A stretch of DNA of 55,407 nucleotides, the filler included, from Stramenopiles sp. TOSAG23-6 (Eukaryota): the NCBI GenBank assembly GCA_900128565.1. It is 3 parts of 3 records of this genome, joined end to end, with 100 filler letters (N's around TTAATTAATTAA, not from the genome) between each part and the next. Parts side by side here need not be neighbours in the genome. Positions count along the whole stretch, not along the records: positions 37,022 to 55,407 come from LT636065.1; 2 more parts are not named here. The stretch is one strand, 5' to 3'. The notes beneath the pieces were generated by a model. The model saw only the letters and a program-made list of their open reading frames with translations, made no database searches and was not told the origin of the DNA. Positions 52,985 through 55,407 of the stretch are shown one piece after another (the first letter of the stretch is position 1; each line of letters opens with the position of its first letter). The position numbers and the translations under genes are program-made.

Positions 52985-55407
52985 ATGTCGGAATCTGGTG
53001 GATTGAATGTCGAGGGATCATTCTCGTTTGGAGTTGATTCACTTGGGCAGAGCATACCAATAGATAATAGTGATGAGATTACATTTGACTTTTCCAAAAC
53101 TACTGAATTTACTTTGAAAGTTTCGGAAGACGAGGAAGAAACTGAGTCTGATTCTAGTGAATCTGAATATTCAGAAGTAGAAATAGAAGAAAAAACAGAA
53201 AAAGATATCTTATGTGAGTATATTGCAGAGTTAAACGAACTTCAACTTGAAATACAATCTAATGTTTCGATTGGCATTGTCCGAATAATTCTTAGCAAGC
53301 TATGTCGCCTCAATGCTCTTGTTTTACAAATGAGACGATCTGAAGAGGATGATAATATTTTATTTTTGACAATATTACATGTAATACGCAGGCTTCTAGA
53401 TGAGGATGACCTTGAAGGCTTAAGCTCTTGCCATATATTTTTAACATTTCTTAGAGCATCGCTCACCCATGCTACATTTCCATTAGCTTTCCATTATGTA
53501 TCTTCAATATATAAGCTAATTGATGCAAATGTTGCAAAGATGAAAACTCTTCGTAACGCAATAAAGAAATCTCGTAAGGATTCAAAGTTACCCATCAATA
53601 ATCAGAACTTTGAAGAGTTTGGTAAAGTTGTACGTTTTCATCAAGAATTTTAAATTTTTTTTCGTACCAAATTTCGTACCTAACGATTTTTTTTCTTGCA
53701 AAAAAAAAAATATATATTTTTTTACAATACTTGTTTCTAGTCGAGCCGAAGATTTGCAACAAACTATACAAGAACAGCAACAGAAAAAGTCTTTCTTGGC
53801 CCAGTTAAATAGTGTATTACGTCATGTATCTGGTTGGTTATCAAGTGATGGCAGAGAAGTACATGTTACAAATAGGTTGAGTGAAGCAATTTTAGAGACA
53901 AACGAAATCATTAGACTTGATGGCTATGGTTCAAATTTTAGTGGGTTGGGAGTCACCGGCTGCGACATGGATCTTAGTCTGAAAATCCTCCCAGGAAGTA
54001 TACACGATTTTTTGAATGATAGAGCACGAAAACAGGTTCTGGAAAAAGTAGAGGATTTGAAAAAACAACAAAATAAACCTGAAGATGGTACGGAAGCAAT
54101 ATCAAATGAAATTGATCCTGAGCAGTTACATCGGATGTTTTCAGTTGTAGTTCTCACTGCAGCAAGCTCTAAAATAATGAGTAATACACATATATTTGCT
54201 GAGTTGCCAGGTAATGATGATCTAGAAAAAAAAAATAAAGAGTTAAATGAAGATGAGGAAGTCATTAGCACAAAAATTGTATCTAGTGCTAGAGTTCCAA
54301 TTTTAAAAGTTAATATTCAAAAATTTAATATGCAATGTGATATATGTATAGATAATGAACTTGCAATTAAAAACACTTCATTGCTTCGAACGTATGTAGA
54401 TTTAGATGTTCGTGTTCGTACGTATTCATTATGAATTTTTTATCTATAATTTTTTTTTTATACGAAATTTTGTACCTAATGATTTTTTTTTTTGAAATAT
54501 TTTTTCACATTACATGACCCTTGATATTTCTTGTGAAGCAGTGGGCTCGTAGTCGAGGTGTAAAGGATGCGTCTAATTGTACGTTAAGTTCGTATACTTG
54601 GTGTATTTTAGTTATTTTCTATTTACAGACGGAAGAGGCATTTGTACGTTTTCATCAATTTCAAATTTCAATATTTTTTTACTATGAAAATTTTGTACCT
54701 AACAAAAAAAAAATTTCCGGTAAAAAAAAACAAAAATATTTTTCACAATCAATACGCTTCCTAGTATACAGAATGAAAATATACTAAAGTATGCAAATGA
54801 ATCTAAGGTAACTGTTGAAGGGCATGATGCAACATTTTGTAGTGATATAGATGTTGTGAAAAAGTATATGCAAAAATATGGTTTATCATTTCCCCCAAAA
54901 AAAAACAAAAAAAAAAATGGAACAAAACCTTCCATTGAAAATTGTAAAATTACACCATCTACAAAAAGTGTAGGTGAATTAGCGTATGGATTTTTTAGAT
55001 ATTATGCATATACATTTAATTATGAATCAAGTGTTGTTTCGATCCGATTGTATGTTTTTTTTAATTTTTTTTCAATTTCGAATTTTTTTTTGTTTTGTAC
55101 GAAATTTCGTACCTAACAAATTTTACAAAAAAAAAAAAAATTTTCACAATACATAGGTGGTGGTTCAAAAGTATATAGAAAAAAACAGTATAGTACAGAT
55201 AGTTTAAATGGTCGTCATATCCCAGGTTGGAGAATTTGTGTAGAAGATCCATTTGAGCGATCACATGATCTTGGTTCTGTAATACGATGTCGTGAAGGAA
55301 TGTATGTTTTATTTTTTTTAATTTCGAATTTATTTTTTTTTCATACGAAATTTTGTACCTAACAAATTTTTTATAATTTTTTTTGAAATATTTTTCCAAA
55401 ATACATG
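52985..55407 (+). CDS. Cid1/TUTase/GLD-2-family non-canonical poly(A/U) polymerase (3'-partial, five introns)
   Basis: YGSNFSGLGVTGCDMDL, ARVPILK, CDICIDNELAIKNTSLL, DVRVRPL..VKQWA, LSSYTW, ICVEDPFERSHDLG. Confidence 0.9.
53630..53732 (+). mobile_element. Introner-like intron GT..TT (TT/TT)
   Basis: Joins GKV-VSSR in frame. Confidence 0.82.
54418..54515 (+). mobile_element. Introner-like intron GT..AT (exon ends TC)
   Basis: Restores DVRV-R-PL; boundaries shifted left create TGA. Confidence 0.9.
54644..54753 (+). mobile_element. Introner-like intron GT..AT (3' end uncertain by one codon)
   Basis: Joins EEAF-TLPSIQ. Confidence 0.65.
55050..55154 (+). mobile_element. Introner-like intron GT..AT (exon ends TT)
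   Basis: Joins VSIRL-GGG in frame with EDPF; the AG 2 nt downstream leads to a stop. Confidence 0.88.
55302..55406 (+). mobile_element. Introner-like intron GT..AT (AT/AT) at contig end
   Basis: Full consensus copy. Confidence 0.82.

Follow-up and report, generated by a model that had tools for sequence, protein, structure and literature searches.

The last part of a 55,407-nt stretch of DNA from Stramenopiles sp. TOSAG23-6 (assembly GCA_900128565.1; hereafter the window, consisting of three joined parts, of which positions 37,022-55,407 are LT636065.1) carries a gene for a Cid1/TUTase-type nucleotidyltransferase that is interrupted five times. The interruptions are likely to be copies of a non-autonomous, introner-like transposon, cut at a fixed position and removed by splicing. 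Judged from sequence, the removed part appears to begin with the element's first G and to stop exactly two bases after a terminal ...ATAC, whatever those two bases are. The AG at which introns normally end is among the most conserved signals of eukaryotic gene expression. The evidence is comparative and, across five conserved genes, internally consistent.

The interrupted TUTase gene and the element family

The gene was delimited from Pfam matches and from collinearity with an ortholog, a 1,055-residue EukProt gene model (P0001). An MTPAP-like palm domain (PF22600, E=2e-20) lies in exon 2, a PAP_assoc domain (PF03828) is split over exons 4 and 5, and sequence matches of the product in the PDB are to TUT7, Cid1, GLD-2 and URT1. 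These domains and matches place the predicted product in the Cid1/TUTase family of nucleotidyltransferases; a word-indexed search with the long exon among proteins of near or greater length gave no match. Spliced computationally, the gene gives 651 amino acids with no stop codon and is collinear with P0001 (E=1e-130) through all five junctions, four of which are gap-free, the fifth having a one-residue gap beside it (the junction at 55050). The gene, its exons and its introns are as follows.

52934-55407, + strand, Cid1/TUTase-type nucleotidyltransferase gene, continuing past the window end
52934-53629, 53733-54417, 54516-54643, 54754-55049, 55155-55301 and 55407 onwards, + strand, TUTase exons of the spliced model
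53630-53732, + strand, intron 1, GT..TT; exon flank tt the same as the intron end; in frame between open reading frames (ORFs) of 232 and 233 codons
54418-54515, + strand, intron 2, GT..AT; begins GTACGT and ends ...CACATTACAT; exon flank tc
54644-54753, + strand, intron 3, GT..AT; end ATCAAT
55050-55154, + strand, intron 4, GT..AT; begins GTATGT and ends ...CACAATACAT, with an AG directly after
55302-55406, + strand, intron 5, GT..AT; nhmmer E=6e-15; downstream exon beyond the window

Introns 2 and 4 are both copies of one introner-like element of about 90-115 nt, and this family supplies almost every intron in the window. Its consensus begins with GTAYGTTTT, followed by a brief segment resembling AATTTCGAAATT, a run of Ts and the palindrome GTACGAAATTTYGTAC with CTAAC after it (branch-point-like motif: GTACCTAAC), and closes, after a variable T-rich stretch, with AAATATTTTTYCAMAATAC and two further bases. 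The 3′ block is T-rich and ends in ...CAMAATAC; the 3′ terminus is ...TTTTTYCAMAATAC plus two bases of any kind. Two subfamilies can be told apart, one with GTATGTTTTA...CCAAAATAC and the other with GTACGTTTTCAT...ACAATAC. The internal core motif GTACCTAA has 34 matches in the window against 0.82 expected, a 20-mer allowing up to three mismatches has 35 against 0.03 expected, and an nhmmer profile built from curated copies returns 46 matches, including duplicates within a mirror-image region described below and two echoes of the element's own palindrome. The curated set comprises 30 unique intragenic copies, spread over unrelated genes (TUTase, ABCF, UTP15, GAS8, CstF77, LRR, Arm, the IP3R region and others); a further copy at 46193-46344, in the IP3R region, has ambiguous ends and stands outside all counts.

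All 30 copies lie in sense orientation to their host gene (two-sided P=1.9e-9). With the cut placed as above, the donor is GT in 29 of the 30, most commonly within the hexamers GTATGT (15 copies) and GTACGT (9 copies); position +5 is G in 28 copies and +6 is T in every one. A CTAAC-like motif, the putative branch point, is likewise present in all of them, at a distance from the 3′ end of 32-107 nt (median 43), and the T content of the tail ranges from 0.24 to 0.67. The uniform orientation, together with GTAYGT and CTAAC, argues for removal from the transcript and not from DNA. Excision from DNA in the manner of the internal eliminated sequences of ciliates, leaving one duplicated target site, is a highly improbable alternative. 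Programmed DNA elimination does remove exactly an element and one 2-bp repeat, and the ends GTAT(G)TTTT and AAAATAC, as read from the consensus, suggest an imperfect inverted repeat of 8-9 nt; however, sense orientation is no requirement of DNA excision, GTAYGT and CTAAC are splicing signals, and TAA serves as a stop codon in the ABCF gene, unlike in many ciliates. Contigs from an RNA library are rich in the element, although DNA carry-over is possible there. A Pfam scan saw no transposase gene in the window.

The same signals bear on which spliceosome would be involved. Larue et al. (2020 preprint) and Sheth et al. (2006), in the available text of both, describe GT-AT introns as rare and of U12 type, apart from a single conserved case of U2 type. 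The elements might be removed by a minor, U12-type-like spliceosome, a machinery known to tolerate GT-AT and other non-AG/AC ends and to set the 3′ site by distance and not by sequence; we consider this unlikely. In its favour, GT-AT makes up 7 of the 66 non-canonical U12 introns of Sheth et al. (available text), conservation of the elements extends to +9 (GTAYGTTTT) as in RTATCCTTT, and CCTAAC resembles the U12 branch motif TCCTTAAC. As far as the accessible accounts of non-canonical U12 introns go (GT-AT, AT-AT, AT-AA and others; Physarum), GT-AT is competent for splicing, and a transposon origin has been proposed for those of Physarum. On the other hand, GT-AT is a small minority in those accounts, and the 5′ RTATCC and end-near branch motif that they describe are missing from the present copies: where RTATCCTT would require CC at +5/+6, none of the 30 has it, and the median 43 nt from CTAAC to the end compares with 10-26 nt for TTCCTTRAC. 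The T-rich tracts also count against a U12 type, and conservation to +9 may merely reflect recent common descent of the copies.

The position of the cut

Each copy was tested with a cut that starts at the element's first G and stops at the position corresponding to the end of ...ATACAT (2 nt past ...ATAC), using the longest flanking ORFs. Two of the 30 copies fall outside this test: 18411, whose upstream flank is N, and 55302, whose downstream exon lies beyond the window. Of the remaining 28, 27 join their flanks in frame (P for at least 27 of 28 at 1/3 = 2.5e-12). Continuity is exact to the residue, with none gained or lost, across the junctions of ABCF, GAS8, UTP15 and TUTase; the genes and their copies are listed in the last section. 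There is almost no room for the view that removal is imprecise, whether because the genes are in decay or because the elements arose in assembly. The window does contain a mirror duplication and many N calls, but long conserved ORFs flank every copy, several proteins continue residue for residue, and the same structure recurs on an independent contig. This contig (L007) came from a scan of metagenome contigs with the core motif, which returned nine loci, one of them a genuine copy, in frame between 117 and 46 codons; the same scan of viral contigs gave no locus, and that of genome contigs a single chance match, in a bacterial metagenome-assembled genome. A protein atlas yielded matches at family level only, of no taxonomic use.

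Both cuts were then moved together over the 27 in-frame copies. At 54418 a stop appears in each of registers -1 to -3, at 2298 in register +1, and at both 48285 and 37391 in register +3. Register +2 creates no stop, yet it gives 19 different end pairs over the 27 copies and turns the invariant EttA residues Asp474 and Asp500 into Val; registers +1 and +2 turn the conserved Asn242 of DRC4, at the 8704 junction, into Asp or Val. Register -2 (AT..AC), considered as a general rule, was rejected for its stop at 54418 and its 15 different end pairs. Stops thus remove -1 to -3, +1 and +3, homology removes +1 and +2, and only register 0, a GT donor with the cut 2 nt after ...ATAC, holds for every copy. 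The argument assumes that all copies are processed alike; where the flanks of one copy are identical, more than one cut is formally possible for it taken alone.

An earlier note on this DNA had held that at the second TUTase intron only GT..AT is workable. The flanks of intron 2 do differ (the interval is GTACGT..ACAT, its exon flanks TC and GA), and sliding it left by 1, 2 or 3 nt does produce an in-frame TGA (VRV*PLI). At register 0 the junction ...DVRV-R-PLIFLVKQWA aligns without a gap to ...DPRVRPVIYLVKRWA of P0001. Excision bounded by TA at this site was tried and is ruled out by a stop codon, at a cost of 12 alignment points. The word 'only' goes too far for this intron: at register +1 (TA..TG) the mRNA is unchanged, since both the intron and the exon after it start with G, and register +2 gives the same peptide.

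Nor is GT..AT unique at intron 4, where registers +1 (TA..TA) and +2 (AT..AG, SIRLCGG) also preserve the frame and do not differ in score from GT..AT when aligned to P0001 (delta 0). The interval splits PAP_assoc, profile positions 1-27 ending at the last residue of the upstream exon and positions 49-60 (...EDPF...) lying in the next exon; homology at the junction is non-discriminating, TUT7, Cid1 and P0001 being variable or gapped there. What the note had said of the adjacent AG is borne out: the intron ends in ATACAT followed by AG, and a GT donor joined to that AG leaves just seven open codons, loses the exon with ...ICVEDPF... (ORF 55117-55362) and costs 184 alignment points with six stops against P0001. 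The AG at 50368-50369, in the ABCF gene, which the note had likewise judged unusable, leaves one open codon.

Intron 4 on its own could instead use the adjacent AG with its donor shifted by 2 nt (AT..AG, 55052-55156, giving ...SIRLCGGS...), a reading that we regard as quite improbable. It is in frame, stop-free and equal in score to GT..AT, and TUT7 and Cid1 vary just after ...SIR. Against it stand the Asp-to-Val and Asn-to-Val changes and the many end pairs that the same register brings elsewhere, the Gly after ...RL in P0001, and the fact that 55050 is the only copy whose next exon begins with AG.

The 3′ terminus, proposed removal and known introns

At register 0 the last two intron bases of the 30 copies are AT in 20, TT in 3, AG in 3, GT in 2, AC in 1 and TG in 1. 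The four GAS8 introns alone end in AC, TT, GT and AT, each with exact continuity of the protein profile. The element's ...TAC, in contrast, is fixed at positions -5 to -3 (T in 28, A in 28 and C in 24 of 30), while the distance from CTAAC to the end varies; the cut thus follows the 3′ block and not the branch-like motif. AGs nearby are passed over. One lies between CTAAC and the end in seven of the 30 copies, and with a GT donor the AGs at -5, -5, -4, +2, +3 and +4 from the end leave 26, 6, 1, 7, 0 and 7 open codons, respectively. In the TUTase gene an AG 8 nt downstream of intron 1 (53630-53732) is out of frame (-612 points and 55 stops against P0001), and an in-frame AG at 54770-54771, 18 nt after the end of intron 3 at 54753, would remove TLPSIQ, the counterpart of VLPSLQ in P0001, at a cost of 32 points.

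The note had also concluded that an AT end is used and nearby AGs are skipped. The non-AG end and the bypassing of AG hold up, by virtue of the comparison across the family; AT as the chosen end is too narrow, for with the cut at this one position other copies have TT, GT, AC, TG or AG as their end, with the same exact profile continuity. The observation is real, and its conclusion is probably right, for a broader reason than the one given.

Of particular relevance is the relation of the final dinucleotide to the exon. In 16 of the 30 copies the last two intron bases equal the last two exon bases before the donor (permutation p=0.005), and single bases match at 44 of 60 positions (p=0.00016). 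In a set of 25 copies, positions -2 and -1 match in 17 and 19 instances, against 3-12 of 23-24 at other offsets. Where the end is not AT the pairs are gt/GT, ac/AC and tt/TT, that is, direct and not inverted repeats. A dinucleotide that copies the last two exon bases as a direct repeat carries the signature of a 2-bp target-site duplication (TSD), and this is what it looks like, as opposed to a recognised splice signal. AT forms the exon flank of 16 of the 30 copies, where the background is 10%, which marks AT as the preferred target. None of the three copies ending in AG has an AG exon flank; such ends would fit later drift towards AG.

These observations suggest the following sequence of events. 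An element would insert with duplication of a 2-bp target site, usually AT; the intron would then comprise the element and the downstream duplicate, and its removal would restore the coding sequence as it stood before insertion. Removal would be by RNA splicing, from a donor and branch site of the major-spliceosome type, and a neighbouring block carried on the element, not an AG, would place the 3′ site, which would explain why AGs lying 2-5 nt away are passed over. It is quite possible, though we put this forward tentatively, that the machinery cuts at a fixed offset from ...TTTTTYCAMAATAC plus 2 nt, indifferent to the dinucleotide, that scarless introns can therefore arise nearly anywhere, and that GT-AT is the majority class throughout this genome.

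Several points weigh against this account. The copy at 2021-1923, which contains five N calls, is the one testable copy that is not in frame. At intron 3 (54644) register +2 scores 4 points higher than register 0, changing Thr to Val as in P0001, and from the 55050 junction alone AT..AG and GT..AT are indistinguishable against P0001. Of the 14 copies whose flank is something other than AT, seven nonetheless have AT at their end, and most matched pairs are AT/AT; the element itself may thus contribute AT in part, or AT may have been favoured later, and few non-AT pairs carry the TSD signal. RNAalifold, applied to 20 of the 30 copies, predicted no pair and hence no conserved fold joining the intron ends, which leaves the measuring of the 3′ site unexplained. 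An intron with G at +1 and U at -1 is a poor substrate for known major spliceosomes. Lastly, in two seawater metatranscriptome runs from one study (X1 and X2, the only public runs found, with shares of 0.10 and 0.07), compared with 48598-55407, no exon-exon joint appeared, all of the joints listed being repeat-to-repeat. Summed contig depth in these runs is about 2,000-5,000 over the element and 0-3 over the exons, and is uninformative either way on splicing. The family must be very abundant in the community RNA library, whether as genomic copies, unspliced RNA, stable introns or DNA carry-over.

Introners are intron-generating DNA transposons described from Micromonas, Aureococcus, Symbiodinium and Polarella (Roy et al., 10.1101/2020.10.14.339549, in its available text). 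By that account introns in unrelated genes arise from a short multi-copy element that carries one of the two splice sites, the other lying in or at the TSD, and splicing restores the coding sequence; copy number, TSD and recruitment of splice sites in the present family appear to fit this concept. In contrast, the TSDs described there give canonical sequence (GHNN, AGGH, NAGG and others) and AG acceptors are kept, whereas in the present family 20 of the 30 copies have AT as the TSD-like dinucleotide and no more than three end in AG. Families with unfamiliar splice sites were treated as suspect by Gozashti et al. 2025 (PMC12130899), and kept only given RNA support, according to the accessible part of that paper.

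The introners of Amoebophrya (Farhat et al. 2021, PMC7789003) likewise come from a marine protist and, in the available text, are transposon-like introns with short direct repeats at their boundaries and non-GT-AG ends. They are there described as having no dinucleotide consensus at either end, terminal inverted repeats of 8-20 nt that form a hairpin, repeats of 3-5 nt and GC-rich host genes, unlike the present family with its GT donor in 29 of 30 copies, its CTAAC, the lack of any predicted conserved pairing and about 33% GC. Fritillaria borealis (Soo et al. 2026, PMC13326754, available text) combines a major-type spliceosome with non-AG 3′ ends on a genome scale and divergent U2AF paralogs; it is an animal whose 5′ sites are non-canonical too, whereas the present family departs at the acceptor only. 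Measured against the two classes of spliceosomal intron, the family departs from the U2 type in its terminal AG and from the U12 type in both motifs. In the literature available as full text (excluding supplements and subscription-only papers) we found no genome with predominantly GT-AT introns and no introner with a non-AG, TSD-derived acceptor.

Known introners respect AG, inserting where the duplicated target can supply it. If the interpretation given here is true, AG-independent removal lifts a constraint on the sites of new introns and offers a natural system for studying how a spliceosome defines a 3′ splice site by position. Standard gene finders, which expect GT-AG, would also give wrong models for almost all interrupted genes of such a genome; the models of TUTase, ABCF, GAS8, UTP15 and CstF77 used here all depend on non-AG acceptors.

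Other copies and their genomic setting

Copies in the remaining genes are as follows.

49436-49547, + strand, ABCF copy, GT..AG at the position of ...ATACAT elsewhere; in frame; next exon from EttA residue 238
50285-50373, + strand, ABCF copy, GT..AT; unused AG 4 nt before the end; EttA 4fin_A ...473/474... (DEPTN/DLD)
50452-50554, + strand, ABCF copy, GT..AT; EttA ...499/500... (ISH/DRWF)
51832-51933, - strand, UTP15 copy, GT..AG; in frame between ORFs of 239 and 317 codons
51110-51223, - strand, UTP15 copy, GT..AG, 114 nt; UTP15_C 5-77, split codon, (79)80-147
8604-8704, - strand, GAS8/DRC4 copy, GT..AC; flank ac; Pfam GAS 1-22/23-77; Chlamydomonas DRC4 H241/N242
8351-8438, - strand, degenerate GAS8 copy, GTGCGT..TT; Pfam GAS ...77/(78)79...; nhmmer E=2.5e-9
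8116-8205, - strand, GAS8 copy, GT..GT; flank gt; Pfam GAS ...125, split codon, (127)128...
7913-8005, - strand, GAS8 copy, GT..AT; Pfam GAS ...162/163...
4021-4215, + strand, CstF77 composite (two-element) intron, GT..AT, 195 nt; in frame
4493-4582, + strand, CstF77 copy, GTAGGT..AT; the next exon, from its first residue, continues the Suf profile at 270
21554-21644, + strand, Arm/BTB gene copy, GT..TT; in frame between ORFs of 828 and 265 codons
10542-10657, + strand, element copy, GT..TG; in frame between 295 and 117 codons
290-188 (GT..GT) and 535-445, 1544-1459 and 2298-2156 (all GT..AT), - strand, curated copies in LRR-type genes
2021-1923, - strand, LRR-type gene copy, not in frame; contains Ns
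11810-11711 (GTAGTT..AT) and composite 11554-11416 (GT..AT, 139 nt), - strand, LRR gene copies, in frame
37391-37236 (ATATGT..AT) and 39518-39428, - strand, mirror-region copies with mirror images on the + arm
47872-47991 and 48285-48436, + strand, further mirror-region copies, on the + arm

The ABCF exons map to residues 238-473, 474-499 and 500-551 of E. coli EttA (4fin_A), with no residue gained or lost. The gene itself (49284-50722, + strand) is of the bacterial EttA type, matching E. coli EttA at E=2.7e-76, far above eukaryotic ABCF1/Arb1; this suggests that it was horizontally acquired or is organelle-related and was colonised by three element-introns afterwards. The five GAS8 exons correspond to Pfam GAS positions 1-22, 23-77, 79-125, 128-162 and 163-200, and the single positions missing between them are first residues and split codons. 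The UTP15 intron at 51110-51223, at 114 nt and with no stop in the host frame, would if retained add 38 residues without truncation. The composites at 4021-4215 and 11416-11554 are in frame as single GT..AT units and are apparently the product of one element landing inside or beside another.

The long copy at 48285-48436 (+ strand) contains the telomere-like motif TTTAGGG / CCCTAAA (...TTTTTAGGGTTTT...), and telomere-like motifs also lie just 3′ of the gene on contig L007 (L007:590-660, reverse strand). At 10990-11120 (+ strand) is a partial element that lacks both ends and lies outside long ORFs, flanked by a near-perfect direct repeat of about 27 nt (TAATAAAAGCTACATTAAAATAATAAA-like).

A mirror (inverted) duplication relates 37022-43093 (- strand) to 43096-49529 (+ strand), with its centre near 43095. 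The inner 3,639 nt of the arms are 100% identical and the outer 2.5 kb 98.9%, the differences being confined to homopolymers of one element. It is probably a chimera or artefact of assembly or amplification and not biology, and element copies inside it were therefore counted once. The arms were considered as a source of empty element sites; being near-identical, they discriminated nothing. A gap of 307 Ns at 46735-47041, in the mirror region, has duplicated sequence on either side. At 18414-18513 and 36922-37021 there are two runs of 44 Ns with 12 bases between them, each adjoining an element copy. Single N calls are frequent inside homopolymers; N stretches were taken as masked or low-quality sequence and limit the analysis of three copies.

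The window is AT-rich (about 33% GC), gene-dense and eukaryotic, and by Pfam its genes include CstF77, GAS8/DRC4, MACPF, ankyrin, Arm/BTB, the IP3-receptor N-terminus, Kelch, EttA-type ABCF and UTP15. An Rfam search of the window found no small nuclear RNA, and there is no tRNA in it either. An uninterrupted ORF of 2,688 codons at 26610-34676 (+ strand) has a strong skew of A over T and no Pfam match at E<=0.001; directly downstream of it, at 34740-34900 (+ strand), a unit of about 55 nt occurs in at least three tandem copies.

Ordinary AG-ended introns are also present in this organism:

16751-16857, + strand, conventional intron outside the family, GTAATT...AAACAG; frame determined by hand from ORFs
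13769-13867, + strand, diverged relative of the family, GTAAGT...GTACTTAAC...TTTTTCACAATACAG, canonical GT..AG; in frame (377 + 139 codons)

The diverged relative ends in ...CACAATACAG.

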